From Escherichia phage 4MG, in the sequence record NC_022968.1: 64,000 bases of DNA; one strand, 5' to 3'. Each line of letters opens with the position of its first letter. Within the stretch, counting starts at the first letter, position 1. This document shows, in pieces, positions 2,085 through 9,638 of this stretch. The translations under genes and the position numbers were made by a program. The notes under the pieces are model-generated. The model had not been told where the DNA came from, did no database searches, and saw nothing but the letters and a program-made list of their open reading frames with translations.

Positions 2085-2690
2085 TTGGATATTATTGTTC
2101 TTAACGCCCCGCCACAAAGCGGTAAAGATGAGATCTCTGCGTATCTGTGCAAAGGTAATCCCAACATCAACCACGAAGAGGTAAAGGAACTCCTGTTTGA
2201 GGTTGCTATTCGTTCAGCGGGGATTTCCCGTGAGTTGTGGGATGCAATGTATACTCGTCGGTATAAAGAGATCCCAAGCCCATATCTGATGATTGATGGT
2301 GTGAATGTATCTCCACGTCAGTGGATGATCCATTGCTCTGAGAAGGTTATCAAGCCGTTGTTTGGTAAGTCTGCATTTGGTAAGGCCGCTGTAGAGCACC
2401 TGAAAAAGACCTATGCGAATGATGAAGTCATTGTGTATTCTGATGGTGGTTTCAGGGAAGAAATCAAAGAGTTATCCGATTACGCATATTCAACTGGTGG
2501 TGAATTCTTCCTTGCACGTATCCACCGAAAAGGTTATGATTGGGGTAATGACAGTCGTAACTGGTTGTACCTTGATGGTATCAGAGGCCACGAACGTGAC
2601 TTTGACAACAAAGAGGGCGGCATGATAGACTGTGCTGAAGAGGTTCTCGAATGGGCGAGAACTATTAGCTACGGAGAAGAGAATGCGTAA
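2085..2690 (+). CDS. P-loop deoxynucleoside monophosphate kinase-like
   Basis: Walker A-like LNAPPQSGKD resembling T4 gp1 dNMP kinase (LSGVKRSGKD); RBS AAAGGAGAG upstream. Confidence 0.5.
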   Translation: MDIIVLNAPPQSGKDEISAYLCKGNPNINHEEVKELLFEVAIRSAGISRELWDAMYTRRYKEIPSPYLMIDGVNVSPRQWMIHCSEKVIKPLFGKSAFGKAAVEHLKKTYANDEVIVYSDGGFREEIKELSDYAYSTGGEFFLARIHRKGYDWGNDSRNWLYLDGIRGHERDFDNKEGGMIDCAEEVLEWARTISYGEENA

Positions 2691-3285
2691 ACCGCTAAAT
2701 ATCGGTATTGATGTTGACCTGACTTTTGTCGATTCAGGGTCCCCTTGGATTCTATGGATGGAACAGGTGTATGGTGTGAGTGCTGACTACAAGCTTCCAC
2801 CACCAAACCCACAAGGGAAACTCTACTACAACGTTTCCAAGTATTTTCCACCTGCAAAGGTAAATCAGGTTCCACCATACGAGTTCTGGGAAGACCCATA
2901 CCTCTATGACAAACTGAAGCCTCTGCCTGGTGCAGTTGAAGCAGTAGCGGCTTGGGCCGAAGCTGGACACTTCAACCAGTTTGTGTCTTACTGTAAGAAA
3001 GGCCACTTCTCGTCTAAGGTGCGATTCCTGAAACGTGAAACGGAAGAGTTTTTCAGTATCGAGCCAGGCTCAGGCCACGGGTTCTATGCAACGAAAAACA
3101 AAGCTGGTATCAAACTCGATGTCATCATTGATGACCGCAACGAGTTCCTGAATCAGTTCGGTCCTGAAGTGATCAAGATTAAGTTCAAGACACCTTACGA
3201 TCAGTCCGAAGAACTTCGTGTCTCGATTGACCTTGAGACCGATAACTGGGACGACATCCGGAAGTTTGTTCTGGACATTGCATAA
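2683..3285 (+). CDS. HAD-superfamily phosphatase, probable 5'-(deoxy)nucleotidase
   Basis: N-terminal IGIDVDLTF = HAD motif I DxDxT; start trimmed to ATG with GGAG RBS, overlapping the kinase stop. Confidence 0.5.
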   Translation: MRKPLNIGIDVDLTFVDSGSPWILWMEQVYGVSADYKLPPPNPQGKLYYNVSKYFPPAKVNQVPPYEFWEDPYLYDKLKPLPGAVEAVAAWAEAGHFNQFVSYCKKGHFSSKVRFLKRETEEFFSIEPGSGHGFYATKNKAGIKLDVIIDDRNEFLNQFGPEVIKIKFKTPYDQSEELRVSIDLETDNWDDIRKFVLDIA

Positions 3286-3479
3286 TGAAGAGATGCCCCA
3301 CAGGAGACTTCGTTGTCCACTATGGGGATTGGGTGGAGGTTTTCACCGAGGACGGAACCTTCCTCATATCCTTCAAAGCAACAAGCGACATGTGTCAGGA
3401 CATCCTGACACGTTATCTGGTGTTTAAAGCAGGAATGAACCCTGAGACACCATATCGAATCAAAAGGAGAGGCAAATGA
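3285..3479 (+). CDS. hypothetical protein
   Basis: ORF with TAATG stop/start overlap. Confidence 0.45.
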   Translation: MKRCPTGDFVVHYGDWVEVFTEDGTFLISFKATSDMCQDILTRYLVFKAGMNPETPYRIKRRGK

Positions 3480-3799
3480 CATTAAAACAAGAATCTTTCG
3501 ACATCCTGAAAAATGAATTGCAACGCCGTGTGGATAAGGTTCCACAGGTTATGGGGTTTGATGCCTATGGTATCACCGCCGCAGATATGGGTCTCGATGC
3601 CGATTTCATTAACCGACTGATCACTGAAGCCTACCTTGGTATCTTCACTGCCGAAGAAGCTGAAGAAATGATCGCATTCCAGCAACGCTTTGCTGATCGC
3701 ACCGCGATCCTTGAAAAGGTTGTGGAAGAAGCTGTTGGAAAGGTAATGGAAGCCAACAAAGAAAACATCCTGAAAAAACTGCAAGAAGGGGTTAAGTAA
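3476..3799 (+). CDS. hypothetical protein
   Basis: ORF with ATGA overlap, RBS AAAGGAGAGG. Confidence 0.5.
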   Translation: MTLKQESFDILKNELQRRVDKVPQVMGFDAYGITAADMGLDADFINRLITEAYLGIFTAEEAEEMIAFQQRFADRTAILEKVVEEAVGKVMEANKENILKKLQEGVK

Positions 3800-4764
3800 T
3801 GACAGAAGCTGTAATCGCTCGCGTAGTAGCGGATAGTGTTTCTCCGCAGGGACAACGTATTACAACTTTTGAGCTTGAATACCCGCGTATCATCCACAGT
3901 GAGTTGATGACGCACCGACTATTCAGTCGTAATGCTATGAGTAGCCGTGCAATTCCGATCAAGAAGATGATCGAGCAGGTTCAGCAAAATCCAGCAATGC
4001 CTGTTAAGTTCGGGAAGAACCAGCCCGGTATGCAAGATGCAGGTGACCATAACCAGTTGATCGATGCGGGTTATGAACCCGCAACTTGGTGGGGACTAGC
4101 AGGGCTGAGTGCAGCACGATTTGCTGAGGCATTTGCAGAAGCTGGGTATCATAAGCAGATTGCAAACCGCCTTCTGGAGCCATTCCAGCGTATGAAGACG
4201 GTCCTGACTGCTACCGACTTCGAGAACTTCTGGTGGTTGCGTGTGGATAAGGATGCAGATCCTACCATCTTCGCACTGGCTGAAGCCATGAAGAAGGCCT
4301 TTGATGAGTCCTTACCAGAACTTCTGGAACCGGGACAGTGGCATACGCCGTATGTTGATCACGTCTACGAATACGAAGACATTGACGACAAAGAATGTGT
4401 TGTGTTTGTTGGGTATTGTGTTCTTGACGAGAACGACAAGCCTGTTATGCTTACCGTTGAGGAAGCAAAGGCAATATCTGCCTCGTGTTGTGCTCAGGTC
4501 TCTTACCGTGTCCTGAACAACACAAAAGATAAGGCGCTGGACATTTATGGGAAACTTTTGAGCGGTAATAAGGTTCATGCTTCTCCGTTCGAACACCAGG
4601 CTACGCCACTTGTTCATGCTTCCTGTGATGAACTGGAGAATGGGGCATTCGCTTGGGAAGAGGGCGTTACCCACGTTGACCGGAATGGGATGTTCTGGAG
4701 TGGTAATTTCCGTGGTTGGTCACAACACCGCCAGTTAGTTCCCAACAACGTAGTTTCAGGTTGA
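3799..4764 (+). CDS. putative flavin-dependent thymidylate synthase (ThyX-like)
   Basis: THRLFSRNAMSSR resembles the ThyX RHR-x7-S-x-R signature; sits in nucleotide-metabolism module; 321 aa is long for ThyX. Confidence 0.4.
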   Translation: MTEAVIARVVADSVSPQGQRITTFELEYPRIIHSELMTHRLFSRNAMSSRAIPIKKMIEQVQQNPAMPVKFGKNQPGMQDAGDHNQLIDAGYEPATWWGLAGLSAARFAEAFAEAGYHKQIANRLLEPFQRMKTVLTATDFENFWWLRVDKDADPTIFALAEAMKKAFDESLPELLEPGQWHTPYVDHVYEYEDIDDKECVVFVGYCVLDENDKPVMLTVEEAKAISASCCAQVSYRVLNNTKDKALDIYGKLLSGNKVHASPFEHQATPLVHASCDELENGAFAWEEGVTHVDRNGMFWSGNFRGWSQHRQLVPNNVVSG

Positions 4765-4845
4765 CAAAGGTTCCAGTAATCCGTATCTTGGTTGTATGAA
4801 TTGCGGGGAGAGTTTCTCCCCGATTATAGGCAGAATGGAGAATAC

Positions 4846-5322
4846 ATGAGTAAAACAAAACGCAAACCTACCCAACACATTTCGGTCACTTTGGACTTCC
4901 TGAGAACCGTTCCTGGATTCGATGTGACACAAGAAAGTGGACTCCGCGCTGCCCTTTATGCAGTAGGATTCCAAGTCTCCGACAGTGAGGGTAATCCTAA
5001 GCAAGTAACTATGCTTAACAACAAAAATGTACGATGTGCTAATTTGCCATATTTGTACCGTAAGACCACGATCTTTGTCGGTGACATGCGTCCGGACTAT
5101 CCGTATGCAAAAATTTATAACGGCGTTGACATCCTTGATGTCGGTGTGTATTCAGAGCGCGACATGGAGTTCGTTATCGACTTGCCTTATGACATCCCGG
5201 TAAACGAAAAAGTCAACACCCGTAAGTACACAAAACGCGGTGACCGCCCAGACTCGTTCGATATTACGTTCAATAGTGAAGATGAAGCACGTCTGAGTGA
5301 CGCATTTGGTCTGGGGGACTAA
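4846..5322 (+). CDS. hypothetical protein
   Basis: Track ORF 4792-5322 trimmed to ATG with GGAG RBS; preceded by hairpin CGGGGAGAG-TTT-CTCCCCG. Confidence 0.5.
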   Translation: MSKTKRKPTQHISVTLDFLRTVPGFDVTQESGLRAALYAVGFQVSDSEGNPKQVTMLNNKNVRCANLPYLYRKTTIFVGDMRPDYPYAKIYNGVDILDVGVYSERDMEFVIDLPYDIPVNEKVNTRKYTKRGDRPDSFDITFNSEDEARLSDAFGLGD

Positions 5323-5561: not shown

Positions 5562-7877
5562 TTGATCAATACAGTTGTAAAGAGTGATGGAACAGAAGTT
5601 GTGTTCGAGCCGGAACGTCTTAACAAAGCAGCAATCTTTGGTGATGACGGCAATGGCAACTGGTCACATATCTCAATGGACGCTTACAAGCGTCTGTATG
5701 ACGGTTGCACCACTCGTGAAGTAAACCAGGCATTGATCGACGCTTGTGTAAGTCGTAAAGATGAAGCTCACTCCCGCATGGCTGGACGTGTTCTCATCGG
5801 GCAGATCTACAAAGAGGCGTATGGTGGTTTTACAAAGATCCCTACGCTGTTTAACTTCTACCACTACATGACCAATATCGGCTACTGGGAAGATATGGGT
5901 TATGACTCTTTCGACCTGATTAAGCTGGAAGAAGCTATTGATCACTCGAAAGACCTGAGTTATGGTTATGCGGTTCTGAAACAGTTCCGCGATAAGTACG
6001 GTATCAAGGACAACATCAACGATGTTCTGTTTGAATCTCCGCAGATGATGTTCATGGGTATCGCAATGGCAGTAATGAAACGTATGCCGAAGGAACGCCG
6101 TATCAATGACGTTATCCAACTGTACACGTACCTGTCTGATCTGAAGATCAATGCTCCAACGCCGTACCTGAATGGTCTGCGTACTGGTCGCACTGGCTAT
6201 GCGTCATGTTGCATCATCAAAGCAGACGACACAGCTAAGAGCATCGGTGTTGCTCGTGAAGTTGCGTACACAATGACGGTTGCACAGGCCGGGATTGGGT
6301 ATTACCTGTCCTCCCGTTCAATCGGTGATGGTGTCCGTGGCAATACGATCAAACACATGGGTAAAATCCCATATTACCGTGGGATTGACTCTGGTGTGAA
6401 AGAGAACCGTCAGTCAACTCGTGGTGGCTCTGCAACAGTTTCGTTCTTGGCTATCGACCCACAAGTCGAAGACCTGATGAAGCTGAAGAACCCGCTCACA
6501 GTGACCTCTAAACGCCTGAACACAATGGATTACTCCATCGGTATTAACCAGTCGTTCATGAACCGTGTGGCTAAGAACCTTGACTGGATGCTGGTCTCTT
6601 ACAAGGATGCACCTCAGTTACACGAGGGTATGTTTAAGATGACCATGCAGGAGTTCGATGCGGAAGTTGCTCGTATCGCAGCGGATAAGAAGATCCCTAA
6701 GACTTGGGTTAAAGCCCGTGACTTAGCTCTGGAGATCATCACACAACGAGCAGAAACAGGTCGCCTGTACGTGTACTGGCCTGATGAGATGAACCGACAC
6801 ACGCCGTTCCTGGAGACAATTTACTCCTCTAACCTGTGTCAGGAAATCTGTCTGCCGACCAAGGGCTACAAAGATATGCGTAATATCTTCAACCCTGTTG
6901 CAGACGATGGTGAGGTTGCGCTATGCTTCCTGTCCTCTTTGGTTGCTGGTCGTGTTACTCCTGAAGAGTACGAGGATGTTGCTTACTACACCGTCCTGAT
7001 GATCGATAACGTTATGGATATCATGGAATATCCGTATGAGAACATGAAGCACACAGCCGAATCTCGTCGTTCGATTGGTGTTGGCCTGACTAACCTTGCT
7101 CACTACATCGCGAAACACAAAGTCGCGTATGGTTCTCCGGAAAGCAAGCAGTTGGTTCACGATCTGGCAGAACTGCACAGCTACAGCCTGCACAAGGCAA
7201 GCTTGCGACTGGCGAAAGAGCGTGGTGTGGCACCGTGGATGCATAAGACCAAATACCCTCAGGGTTGGTTGCCTATCGACACCTATAACAAGGCAGTTGA
7301 TAGTGTTGTGAAGAATCCGAGTCTGAAGCAGGACTGGGAAACTCTGCGACAGGAAATCATCAAGAATGGTGGTATTCGTAACAGTGTTCTGGAAGCGTAT
7401 ATGCCGAACGAAAGTTCCTCATTGGCTACCAACACAACCAACGGTCTGTATCCGGTACGTGATCATGTGATCTTCAAGAAATCGCCTCAAGGCTCTGTGC
7501 TGTTTATTGTGCCTGAGTATGAAGAACTGAAGGATTACTACACCTCTGCGTGGGATATCAACACAAACGACCTGATTGACATTTACGCCATCATTCAGAA
7601 GTTCGCAGGCCAGGCAATCAGTGCTGACCTCTACATCGACTACACCCAGTTGAAAGACGGGAAGATTTCGATGAAAGACCAGATTGGTTATCTGATCCGT
7701 GCGACGAAGATGGGGATGAAGACCTGGTACTACCTGAACTCGAAGGTTGGTGCTGGCGACTCCCTCACCGCAGAACTTCAGGCGAAGAAAGAAGCAGAAG
7801 AGGCCACCCGCAAGGATTATCCTCTGATCGCTGACAACTCTGTCGAAGATCCGTACTGTGAAGGTTGTGCATTGTAA
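5562..7877 (+). CDS. nrdA: ribonucleotide reductase class Ia large subunit
   Basis: 771 aa; N-terminal ATP-cone-like segment, SSNLCQEI active-site motif, C-terminal YCEGCAL Cys pair; TTG start after AAGGAG. Confidence 0.9.
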   Translation: MINTVVKSDGTEVVFEPERLNKAAIFGDDGNGNWSHISMDAYKRLYDGCTTREVNQALIDACVSRKDEAHSRMAGRVLIGQIYKEAYGGFTKIPTLFNFYHYMTNIGYWEDMGYDSFDLIKLEEAIDHSKDLSYGYAVLKQFRDKYGIKDNINDVLFESPQMMFMGIAMAVMKRMPKERRINDVIQLYTYLSDLKINAPTPYLNGLRTGRTGYASCCIIKADDTAKSIGVAREVAYTMTVAQAGIGYYLSSRSIGDGVRGNTIKHMGKIPYYRGIDSGVKENRQSTRGGSATVSFLAIDPQVEDLMKLKNPLTVTSKRLNTMDYSIGINQSFMNRVAKNLDWMLVSYKDAPQLHEGMFKMTMQEFDAEVARIAADKKIPKTWVKARDLALEIITQRAETGRLYVYWPDEMNRHTPFLETIYSSNLCQEICLPTKGYKDMRNIFNPVADDGEVALCFLSSLVAGRVTPEEYEDVAYYTVLMIDNVMDIMEYPYENMKHTAESRRSIGVGLTNLAHYIAKHKVAYGSPESKQLVHDLAELHSYSLHKASLRLAKERGVAPWMHKTKYPQGWLPIDTYNKAVDSVVKNPSLKQDWETLRQEIIKNGGIRNSVLEAYMPNESSSLATNTTNGLYPVRDHVIFKKSPQGSVLFIVPEYEELKDYYTSAWDINTNDLIDIYAIIQKFAGQAISADLYIDYTQLKDGKISMKDQIGYLIRATKMGMKTWYYLNSKVGAGDSLTAELQAKKEAEEATRKDYPLIADNSVEDPYCEGCAL

Positions 7878-7914: not shown

Positions 7915-9003
7915 ATGGCTGTATTTAACGTTGAGAACACCGCTCATAAAACTGGTGACTATCCGCTGTTCTTAGGGCAGCAAATGGGGATGTATGACTC
8001 CATCAACAAAAAGTACCCGCAACTGTTCGACCTGTACAAAAAGCAGAAAGAGCAGGACTGGTCTGAAGATGAAGTTGAACTGAACCAATCCATTACCGAT
8101 TTCGCGACCTGTAGCAAATCAACCTACGATGTCATGGTCCAGACGATCATGTGGCAGTGGGAAGCCGACAGCGTTGCAGCACAGGCGATTATTTGTCTGT
8201 TCGCACCATTCATCACCAATAGTGAACTGTTTGCTATGATGATGAAGCAATCTGAGATTGAAGTTCTTCATGCTTTAACGTATTCTGATATTGTCCGTCA
8301 GTGTCTGCCAAACTCACGACAGATCATTGAAGACATTCAGAATAACCAAGCTGTTCTCGAACGCTCTGGTGTAATCGTGAAGTATATGCGTGAACTGGAA
8401 GTTCTCGGTGCAAAATACCGTATCGATCCTGAGTCCGTGGACAAAGAAGAGATTCGCCGTGGTATTCTGCGAGCGCTGTTCTCTCTGCTTGGTCTTGAAG
8501 GTATCGAGTTCATCTCCAGCTTTGCATGTACCTTTGCACTGGCAGAACAGGGTGTGTTCGTTCAGGTCGGTCAGCTTGTCCAGAAAATCATGCTGGATGA
8601 AATGCTGCACACCAAGATGGACTTCGGTGTTATTGACATTCTCCTGAAAGACCCTGTGTGGAAAGATAGTTTCTACGCTATCAAGTCAGAACTGAAGGCG
8701 ATCCTCGATGAGGTACGTACAAACGAGTATGCATGGGGTGATTACCTGTTCAGTGAAGGCCGTGCGATCATCGGGCTTAACGCTCCATTACTGAAGGACT
8801 GGACAGACTGGAACTGCGCCCCGATCTACGATTACTACGGTATCGAACGTGACTTCGAAGCACCAAAACGCGATCCTCTTCCGTTCATGGACACTTGGAT
8901 GAACCCAAGCAAACAGCAGAATGCGAATCAGGAACAAACCAACACCGATTATCGTGTCAACGCGGCAATTGATGACACTGAAGGCGAAACCTGGGATTTC
9001 TAA
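7915..9003 (+). CDS. nrdB: ribonucleotide reductase class Ia small subunit
   Basis: 362 aa directly downstream of nrdA with RBS GGGGAATA; size and position as expected for NrdB. Confidence 0.8.
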   Translation: MAVFNVENTAHKTGDYPLFLGQQMGMYDSINKKYPQLFDLYKKQKEQDWSEDEVELNQSITDFATCSKSTYDVMVQTIMWQWEADSVAAQAIICLFAPFITNSELFAMMMKQSEIEVLHALTYSDIVRQCLPNSRQIIEDIQNNQAVLERSGVIVKYMRELEVLGAKYRIDPESVDKEEIRRGILRALFSLLGLEGIEFISSFACTFALAEQGVFVQVGQLVQKIMLDEMLHTKMDFGVIDILLKDPVWKDSFYAIKSELKAILDEVRTNEYAWGDYLFSEGRAIIGLNAPLLKDWTDWNCAPIYDYYGIERDFEAPKRDPLPFMDTWMNPSKQQNANQEQTNTDYRVNAAIDDTEGETWDF

Positions 9004-9013
9004 GGAGAAAAAT

Positions 9014-9370
9014 ATGACAGTGCAAGACAACGTTCCACTTAAACCGCTACGCTTAGTGGCTTACGACCCACAGAAACTCCATCTTTTCCTTGGTGGCGAA
9101 CGGGTTAGTGGATTCATGCCATACCGTAAGATTTCCTTGCGCCGTGGTCTGAACGGCACGTTTGAAATGGAAATTTTCCTAAGTGGGGTGTCTTCTTGGG
9201 TCCCTAAGTTGCGTCAACTTTTAGGTTATGAAATGGCTATCAGTGTTCAGTATCCAAATGAATTTGCTGATAATCTTGGTTTTGAGGATGTTGGTGTCCT
9301 CTCCGGATTCGACCTGCACTTCACCAACGAAGTTCCGGAAATTGTGTTCTACTTTAAAAATAAGGATTGA
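9014..9370 (+). CDS. hypothetical protein
   Basis: Track ORF 8921-9370 trimmed to ATG after TAAGGAGAAAAAT. Confidence 0.5.
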   Translation: MTVQDNVPLKPLRLVAYDPQKLHLFLGGERVSGFMPYRKISLRRGLNGTFEMEIFLSGVSSWVPKLRQLLGYEMAISVQYPNEFADNLGFEDVGVLSGFDLHFTNEVPEIVFYFKNKD

Positions 9371-9371
9371 T

Positions 9372-9638
9372 ATGAGTATCAAAGACAATACCTTCGTGAT
9401 CTATGGCAAAGATAGCTGCCCTCACTGTGTTCGTGCGAAAGAATTCGCAAAGTCAAAAGGTCTTGACTTCCTGTACATGACCCTTGACAAGAACTATACA
9501 AAGGAAGAACTGGTTGCCAAATGTGCTCCAGTGATCCCGACAACCGTCCCACGCGTATTTATGGAAGTAGACGGTACTGAGCGTTATGTAGGGACCGCAG
9601 ATGAGTTTATCGCATTTGTGAAATCTCATAACATCTGA
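9372..9638 (+). CDS. glutaredoxin/NrdH-like redoxin
   Basis: CPHC active-site motif in an 88 aa protein next to nrdAB; trimmed start. Confidence 0.65.
   Translation: MSIKDNTFVIYGKDSCPHCVRAKEFAKSKGLDFLYMTLDKNYTKEELVAKCAPVIPTTVPRVFMEVDGTERYVGTADEFIAFVKSHNI

Follow-up and report, generated by a model that had tools for sequence, protein, structure and literature searches.

Does an unusually long ThyX-like gene with an altered motif in Escherichia phage 4MG still encode a thymidylate synthase, and what accounts for its odd features? The gene lies in a 64,000-nucleotide stretch of DNA (NC_022968.1), which we refer to as the window. A first-pass annotation, made from the sequence alone, had described an open reading frame (ORF) on the plus strand at 3799..4764, which encodes 321 residues with a variant of the ThyX motif, and had proposed that the product is either a divergent thymidylate synthase or an enzyme that makes a modified pyrimidine. 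The ORF and its variant motif were found exactly as described, and its product matches, with 100% identity, the Escherichia phage 4MG protein that is annotated as "FAD-dependent thymidylate synthase." We propose, with fair confidence, that the gene encodes a member of the ThyX superfamily of flavin-dependent thymidylate synthases that has a permuted sequence order and that most likely still makes thymidylate (dTMP). Both the odd length and the altered motif would result from a rearrangement of the ThyX front end toward the back of the protein.

Homology to ThyX

The hidden Markov model (HMM) search suggested by the first-pass annotation supports a ThyX-like identity. Thy1 (PF02511) was the sole Pfam family matched by the protein at E values up to 1, and the score of 33.7 bits exceeded the gathering threshold of 24.8 (E 4e-8). 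This match takes in only profile positions 52 to 191, which correspond to residues 15 to 174. The protein also matched PHROG_85, "thymidylate synthase," at 1.8e-112. A single-sequence search of the Protein Data Bank (PDB) with the 4MG protein found no relatives, and tblastn with the ThyX of Thermotoga maritima (Tm) gave no match in the window; judged from these searches, the relationship to ThyX is detectable only by profiles. A profile of 127 aligned family representatives (37 to 88% identity) matched 20 PDB sequences, all of them ThyX. The AlphaFold2 model built on the same alignment is very confident (predicted local distance difference test, 95.5; predicted template modeling score, 0.92), and all 50 matches listed by Foldseek against the PDB were ThyX, which points to a ThyX fold for the modeled protein. 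Taken together, these data indicate that the 4MG protein is almost certainly homologous to ThyX at the superfamily level. Its length, which had been called atypical, is indeed so when compared to canonical ThyX (solved chains of 216 to 270 residues) but not within its own family, where 300 to 345 residues are normal.

A structure search of BFVD returned only other phage "thymidylate synthases." Among these, the proteins of phiCB2047-B (Sulfitobacter, 331 residues), crAss-like phages (311 to 334 residues), and Skog (Gordonia, 372 residues) were aligned over only ~160 to 180 columns; further noncanonical ThyX architectures may exist among the long (300- to 370-residue) phage proteins annotated as ThyX-like.

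Order of the ThyX elements

In canonical ThyX, the elements follow each other in the order β1-β2-α1-α2-(HxxPFEH)-β3-α4-motif...R174 helix. The 4MG protein departs from this order (Table 1), since the equivalents of ThyX residues 21 to 60 come after the equivalent of residue ~200. In ThyX terms, the chain would begin at the counterpart of β3 (Tm ~60), take in the (T)HR..S.R motif and then the helices that correspond to those of R147 and R174, reach the counterpart of Tm ~200, and continue with the ThyX N-terminal module and, last, a new conserved 55-residue tail. The relocated module comprises a helix with S235 (Tm S30), a second helix, and H260-A-S-P-F-E-H266 (Tm H53-E-T-P-F-E-H59). The insertion at residues 54 to 93 occupies the place of the canonical ThyX active-site loop, and the invariant residues H182 and P184 (nucleotides 4342 to 4350) lie just upstream of the linker strands. 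This insertion, the linker and strands at residues 176 to 225, and the tail at residues 270 to 321 add the ~100 residues by which the protein exceeds canonical ThyX, and they explain its length of 321 residues.

Table 1. Features of the ThyX-like gene, its protein segments, and neighboring genes (window coordinates)
Feature	Residues	Position	Strand	Evidence or remarks
ThyX-like coding sequence	321 plus stop	3799..4764	+	ATG start; Pfam Thy1 and PHROG_85 matches
Ribosome-binding-site-like GAAGGGG (3785-3791), 8 nucleotides upstream of ATG (3799-3801)		3785..3801	+	Direct sequence reading
N-terminal strand	1-19	3799..3855	+	Model strand 6-14; S13 conserved; no ThyX counterpart detectable by sequence
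Core, collinear with Tm ThyX ~59-200 (β3 through R174 helix)	20-175	3856..4323	+	hhalign, Pfam
Variant motif T38-H39-R40-x2-S43-R44-N45-x2-S48-S49-R50 (THRLFSRNAMSSR)	38-50	3910..3948	+	Direct reading, alignment
Family-specific insertion/loop (40 residues)	54-93	3958..4077	+	Invariant G77-M78; conserved P68, G72
H118-K119-Q120..R124 (Tm R147), R148 (Tm R174), D152 (Tm H178)	118-154	4150..4260	+	Also T137/T139 (Tm N163/R165) and N143 (Tm N169)
Linker and β-strands	186-225	4354..4473	+	Model strands 187-195, 198-209, 215-218
Putative relocated ThyX N-terminal module	226-269	4474..4605	+	hhalign, hmmsearch, transplant test
Conserved C-terminal tail	270-321	4606..4761	+	W..G.TH.D..G..WSGNF.GW.Q.RQL; N303, Q309, invariant R311
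Upstream ORF, function unassigned	107	3476..3799	+	ORF list; TAATG overlap
NT5C-like 5'(3')-deoxyribonucleotidase homologue		2683..3285	+	Pfam NT5C 23.9 bits, just below 24.8 cutoff
Ribonucleotide reductase large subunit (NrdA-like)		5562..7877	+	Pfam Ribonuc_red_lgC 1.2e-104
Ribonucleotide reductase small subunit (NrdB-like)		7915..9003	+	Pfam Ribonuc_red_sm 5.9e-29
Glutaredoxin		9369..9638	+	Pfam Glutaredoxin 3.4e-9

Several comparisons argue for this order. (i) The family profile matched T. maritima ThyX, the sequence of which was confirmed to be identical to PDB 1KQ4, in three pieces, namely, profile positions 218 to 260 with Tm 20 to 60 (DLSAVRAARVSF...HETPFEH), 26 to 55 with Tm 61 to 90 (ending in SGR), and 137 to 177 with Tm 159 to 199 (the NFLNLR174 helix). 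These pieces are non-collinear with T. maritima ThyX, and the same outcome was repeated in native numbering. (ii) Against a profile of Thermotogota ThyX sequences, hhalign aligned residues 226 to 269 with Tm 21 to 62 (probability, 91%; E 1e-6) and, in an independent local alignment, residues 19 to 174 with Tm 59 to 200 (probability, 87%; E 4e-6). (iii) When this profile was concatenated to itself, hhalign placed residues 13 to 304 in one alignment that bridged the junction (probability, 96.7%; E 3e-10; score, 80). With HMMER, a doubled target gave 53.0 bits, compared to 29.7 bits for a single one, and one domain spanned Tm 160 to 220 and then 1 to 61. (iv) In a transplant test, residues 213 to 267 were placed ahead of residues 20 to 185 and the construct was rescored. 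The Pfam Thy1 score increased from 33.7 to 45.2 bits, with profile coverage extended from positions 52 to 191 to positions 15 to 191, and the score with TIGR02170 increased from 34.5 to 48.2 bits (coverage, 17 to 208 of 211), which is still below its cutoff of 87.9. With the Thermotogota HMM, the construct scored 26.0 bits, compared to 13.6 bits for the native sequence, 9.6 bits for the core (residues 20 to 185) alone, 8.8 bits for the C-terminal tail plus the core, and 9.4 ± 1.1 bits (maximum, 15.1) for 100 shuffled-segment controls. Full rotation (residues 186 to 321, then 1 to 185) barely altered the Pfam Thy1 score (34.9 bits), because the 55-residue tail and the 19-residue N-terminal strand then part the two homologous pieces; dropping both from the rotated construct yielded the gain in score.

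These data make it very likely that the order of the α1-α2-HxxPFEH segment is rearranged relative to ThyX, and we consider a true circular permutation, with nearly the same confidence, to be its simplest description. That the protein is instead a conventional collinear ThyX extended at its C terminus, in which case the rearrangement would be an alignment artifact, is very improbable. The final three quarters of the Pfam and TIGRFAM profiles do align with residues 15 to 175 in collinear fashion, and the relocated module taken by itself scores weakly in HMMER (9.2 bits). However, the collinear matches never reach profile positions 1 to 51, only 19 residues precede the β3 equivalent, the relocated module has H-x-[ST]-P-F-E-H and the S30 equivalent invariant or nearly so, and the doubled-template and transplant tests were specific (z of about 15 with shuffled controls). 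As for β1-β2, adding either residues 1 to 19 or residues 186 to 218 to the un-permuted construct brought no gain in score, and the strands at residues 186 to 225 are candidate counterparts from the model rather than from the sequence.

The permuted order may have originated by tandem duplication followed by trimming, which is the classic route to circular permutation. Homologues of ~520 to 680 residues were considered as tandem-duplication intermediates, but this was rejected, as they are single 320-residue units split by inteins (P0126, P0133, P0134, P0148, P0173, P0175, P0179, P0184, P0196, P0208, P0210, P0221, P0257, and P0270). The inteins (Intein_splicing plus HNH, or LAGLIDADG) occupy at least four sites, of which one is directly after the THR motif (e.g., "...VHN|CFSRNAMSSR"); others are at profile positions ~47 to 53, 155/156, and 253/254, the last just before H-A-S-P-F-E-H. 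The C-terminal tail at residues 270 to 321 has no significant ThyX counterpart. When residues 267 to 321 were examined for the remains of a second ThyX motif, the best hhalign result was not significant (E 0.29; probability, 0.2%); the best similarity, of "RGWSQHRQLV" to Tm "RQWFRHRIAS," could be a duplication relic and is noted as a lead only.

The THR motif and the active site

The ThyX motif is R-H-R-x7-S (Myllykallio 2002, quoted in PMC2826268). The 4MG protein has instead T-H-R-x7-S, with the His, the second Arg, the spacing, the Ser, and the next Arg retained. Residues 37 to 50 read M-T-H-R-L-F-S-R-N-A-M-S-S-R (MTHRLFSRNAMSSR), and T38-H39-R40 is encoded by acg cac cga (nucleotides 3910 to 3918). 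The spacing noted in the first-pass annotation was confirmed, since the segment matches T. maritima R78-H79-R80-x7-S88-x-R90 residue for residue with Thr for the first Arg; in full, its equivalent is R78-H79-R80..S83-Y84-N85..S88-G89-R90. The pattern T-H-R-x-[FL]-S-[RK]-N-x-x-S-S-R was present in the great majority of 150 representatives. In the 127-sequence alignment, T38 is conserved in 123 sequences, H39 and R50 in all, R40 in 107, and S48 in 126. Because of this conservation, the THR motif is not a chance match; as judged from the alignment, it is a family signature and not a one-off.

The active-site positions outside the motif are conserved as well, with R124 present in 126 of the 127 sequences and R148, S235, and H260 in all; S48, R124, N143, E265, and H266 are each conserved in at least 95%. 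The equivalents of T. maritima residues (in parentheses) are H39 (H79), R40 (R80), S43 (S83), N45 (N85), S48 (S88), R50 (R90), R124 (R147), N143 (N169), R148 (R174), S235 (S30), H260 (H53), E265 (E58), and H266 (H59). Hence, the residues that bind or activate deoxyuridine monophosphate (dUMP), namely, S88, R90, R147, and R174, are matched by S48, R50, R124, and R148, and the flavin/folate-side residues H53 and S30 are matched by H260 and S235. Other positions, all of which are invariant in the canonical set, are replaced family-wide: R74 by A/S, Q75 by E, R78 by T, E86 by A/S, Y91 by A, E144 by Q, N163 by T/S, R165 by T, and H178 by D/A. The family residues at these replaced sites include T38, A/S46, A51, T/S137, T139, and D/A152. 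N163, R165, and H178 are residues that we take to be flavin contacts in 1O26. The family has in turn acquired invariants of its own, which are R30 (or K), G77, M78, K119, H182, P184, and R311. In ThyX, R78, R80, S88, and R90 form hydrogen bonds with dUMP (PMC3498832), R78 also faces the N1/C2=O edge of reduced flavin (PMC11940539), R174 activates dUMP, the conserved S88 and Y91 are close enough for hydrogen bonding in the active site (PMC8316439), and H53 and S30 function on the side of the folate and flavin (PMC11940539). By this residue map, the nucleotide side of the site appears intact, and several residues around the flavin appear rebuilt.

The loss of R78 may be compensated nearby. Position 44 is Y or F in canonical ThyX and is R or K in 122 of the 127 family members. 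T38 occurs together with R/K44 in 121 sequences and with a non-basic residue 44 in 2, K38 occurs with C/N/M44 in 3 sequences that are only 33 to 42% identical to one another, and R38 occurs with R44 in a single sequence. Basic residues at positions 38 and 44 are thus nearly mutually exclusive (Fisher P = 1.2e-4, phylogeny not corrected for), from which we infer that the R78 guanidinium has moved six residues downstream to R/K44.

Family distribution and predicted function

In tblastn searches, the 4MG protein matched 1,033 phage records, nearly always over its full length. They include rV5/PVP-SE1-like, ICP1, PAK_P1-like, N4-like (including DSS3Φ2, whose ORF29 is the homologue of N4 gp30), and phiCbK-like phages, among others. 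An exhaustive library contained 5,114 cluster representatives (50% identity clusters) at E ≤ 1e-3, typically of 300 to 345 residues. The gene usually adjoins ribonucleotide reductase; in three distant members, it adjoins DNA polymerase B and dUTPase, DNA ligase, and NT5C (upstream) with ribonucleotide reductase, respectively. The annotation of the related phage GAP31 includes a thymidylate kinase and MazG-like enzymes but no ThyA, dihydrofolate reductase (DHFR), dCMP deaminase, or dUTPase, and neither the window nor GAP31 contained a tblastn match to E. coli ThyA, FolA, or Dut (E ≤ 0.1). The 4MG protein itself gave no Pfam match to the ThyA (Thymidylat_synt) family at E values up to 1. PaP1 gp110 is 50% identical, has the same motif, and is followed downstream by one small ORF and then the ribonucleotide reductase genes; gp110 is highly expressed, and thymidine is up during PaP1 infection (PMC5377924).

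A dUMP-to-dTMP synthase activity is likely in view of the conserved site, in which H39, R50, R148, S235, and H260 are all invariant, and inteins at the THR motif and just before HASPFEH are typical of functionally critical sites. The data show the homology and the fold, the non-collinear order, the equivalent residues, and the neighboring genes; flavin use, dTMP as the product, the oligomeric state, and the charge relocation are inferred. In the proposed mechanism, the reduced flavin would take the methylene from methylenetetrahydrofolate, and dUMP would stack on the flavin, with its phosphate held by R124 and S48 and its activation brought about by R148 and R50. H260 and S235 would act on the folate/flavin side, and dTMP would be released as the product. 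The first Arg, which in ThyX contacts dUMP and stabilizes the anionic FADH-, is replaced by Thr, its charge apparently having moved to R/K44. Together with ribonucleotide reductase, glutaredoxin, and thymidylate kinase, the enzyme would allow the phage to make dTTP for itself, without reliance on the ThyA and DHFR of the host. dTMP would be made without consuming tetrahydrofolate to dihydrofolate, which fits the absence of a phage DHFR and agrees with the anticorrelation that has been noted in jumbo phages between ThyX and ThyA, with which DHFR is partnered (PMC7824862).

A number of points weigh against this reading. (i) The HMM checks that had been suggested for ThyX gave a divided result, since Pfam Thy1 was above its cutoff but the NCBIfam equivalog TIGR02170 (34.5 bits against 87.9) was far below it. 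(ii) The family-wide replacement of canonical invariants means that flavin binding or chemistry could differ. (iii) The permutation is supported by profile alignments and secondary-structure order, and the canonical comparison profile consisted of 119 Thermotogota ThyX sequences only. As β1-β2 counterparts were not located by sequence, a transposition of the α1-α2 module alone is an alternative to circular permutation. (iv) The PaP1 evidence is correlative, the open-access literature yielded no biochemical data on any family member, and the single-sequence PDB search turned up no solved structure of one. (v) Canonical ThyX can be oxygen sensitive in E. coli complementation (PMC3498832).

The second proposal of the first-pass annotation, an enzyme that makes a pyrimidine nucleotide other than dTMP, is improbable. 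Such a product could arise as 5-hydroxymethyl-dUMP, if water captured the exocyclic-methylene intermediate in place of its reduction, or from UMP or dCMP as the substrate. However, R50 and R148, which contact and activate the uracil, do not vary within the family, and R124 and S48, which bind the phosphate, are retained. The family occurs in N4-like, ICP1, PAK_P1-like, and rV5-like phages, whose DNA is not known to carry anything but normal thymine. No glycosyltransferase, kinase, or other post-replicative modification gene was found beside the 4MG gene or at the three distant loci. Furthermore, the rise in thymidine in PaP1-infected cells (PMC5377924) argues against this alternative, and known thymidine hypermodification begins with a dUMP hydroxymethylase of the ThyA family, not with ThyX (PMC8989533). 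That the protein is a ThyX relic devoid of catalytic activity, with a role in nucleotide binding or in the regulation of, e.g., ribonucleotide reductase, is hardly credible. In its favor are the loss of several canonical residues, the equivalog score below the cutoff, and the usual proximity of the gene to ribonucleotide reductase genes. Against it, 11 positions are invariant and ~35 are conserved at ≥90% among sequences of ~40 to 50% identity, concentrated at catalytic-site equivalents, inteins target the catalytic motifs, the family is kept in 1,033 phage records, and the gene is the sole candidate thymidylate synthase in the GAP31 genome.

It is possible, if rather unlikely, that this virus-specific permuted lineage with its rebuilt flavin pocket works unlike every characterized ThyX. 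The loss of R78, Y91, N163, R165, and H178, the charge at R/K44, the new residues R30, K119, H182, and R311, and the tail are the features that may make it do so, and the differences may include another flavin or flavin-binding mode, the reductant, oxygen tolerance, or a product other than dTMP, such as 5-hydroxymethyl-dUMP.

Comparison with known enzymes

Canonical ThyX (EC 2.1.1.148), a homotetramer with bound FAD that converts dUMP to dTMP in dependence on NAD(P)H and methylenetetrahydrofolate and complements thyA, is represented by T. maritima TM0449 (1O26/1KQ4), PBCV-1 A674R (4FZB/2CFA), and the Mycobacterium tuberculosis (2AF6) and Helicobacter pylori (3AH5) enzymes, from which the 4MG protein differs in order and length as described above. 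In contrast, 4MG is an ordinary member among its phage homologues, which include N4 gp30, PaP1 gp110 (Pseudomonas), the "putative thymidylate synthase" of ICP1 (Vibrio), ORF29 of roseophage DSS3Φ2, and the PHROG_85 proteins of rV5, PVP-SE1, and GAP31. These share its permuted order, the THR..SSR motif, and full-length alignments at 34 to 90% identity, and their genes usually adjoin nucleotide-metabolism or replication genes. Unlike 4MG, some homologues bear inteins, and some relatives have an HNH endonuclease gene after the gene. PolB, the cellular ThyX paralogue of polyoxin biosynthesis (a UMP/dUMP C5-methylase; 4P5A), is collinear with ThyX, unlike the 4MG protein, in which no PolB-specific feature was noticed, although none was tested for. 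ThyA synthases and phage dUMP/dCMP hydroxymethylases are functional analogues, which transfer the carbon of methylenetetrahydrofolate to pyrimidine C5 and serve phage deoxynucleotide supply, but ThyA-family enzymes are unrelated to the 4MG protein in fold and mechanism.

ThyX or thymidylate synthase is the routine annotation of the 4MG gene, and at that level there is nothing new. What seems to be undescribed is that a phage clade including N4, ICP1, and PaP1 has a circularly permuted ThyX without the first RHR arginine and without several other residues regarded as invariant; in the open-access literature, we found no permuted ThyX, THR signature, or biochemical test of the clade, and nothing relevant on thyA complementation by phage ThyX or on a link of ThyX to hydroxymethyl bases. 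If true, this reading would provide a natural experiment on the residues that ThyX chemistry needs, notably R78, which is thought to stabilize the reduced flavin. It would also account for the failure of the equivalog model on these proteins and provide a large family of enzymes with which phages of ThyA-only hosts would make thymidylate. Motif or length filters such as RHRx7S would drop the whole clade from ThyX surveys; an earlier survey filtered sequences on deviation from this motif (PMC2826268), and such filters could undersample the clade. The finding would be of note for ThyX enzymology and phage annotation and is not a new kind of system.

Gene neighborhood

The DNA around the gene is 90 to 92% identical to that of the Seunavirus/Vequintavirinae phages LNA4, EC152, and GAP31, which identifies the window, by sequence similarity, as a PVP-SE1-like, rV5-related myovirus. 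The ATG of the ThyX-like gene overlaps the TAA stop (3797 to 3799) of the upstream 107-residue ORF as TAATG, with one shared base. This overlap suggests translational coupling, and the gene is part of a co-directional, probably translationally coupled block. The upstream ORF, which has no Pfam match, is kept in Seunavirus relatives (GAP31_145). An RNase_T-like exonuclease gene is also among the flanking genes identified with Pfam in the window. Two of the starts in Table 1 were picked by comparison with GAP31: that of the NT5C-like gene was chosen to fit the 200-residue GAP31_147 (the listed ORF begins with GTG at 2632), and that of glutaredoxin, which is approximate, was set at an ATG inside ORF 9228..9638 so as to agree with the 88-residue GAP31 glutaredoxin.

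Directly after the stop of the ThyX-like gene, at 4761 to 4789, there is a sigma-70-like promoter match (TTGACA-17 nucleotides-TATCTT; 10/12), which precedes the next ORF (4792..5322). In PVP-SE1, SSE121, KE22, GEC_vB_MG, and NINP13076, the interval between thyX and nrdA is ~350 to 540 bp longer and contains an annotated HNH homing endonuclease gene; this gene of the Salmonella phage relatives is missing from the 4MG window. The GAP31_030 protein annotated as thymidylate kinase has 370 residues, and typical thymidylate kinases are much shorter. GAP31 also encodes 26 tRNAs and a set for NAD+ salvage (phosphoribosyl pyrophosphate synthetase, nicotinamide phosphoribosyltransferase, nicotinamide mononucleotide adenylyltransferase, and a PnuC-like transporter), which may be linked to the need of ThyX and ribonucleotide reductase for NAD(P)H.

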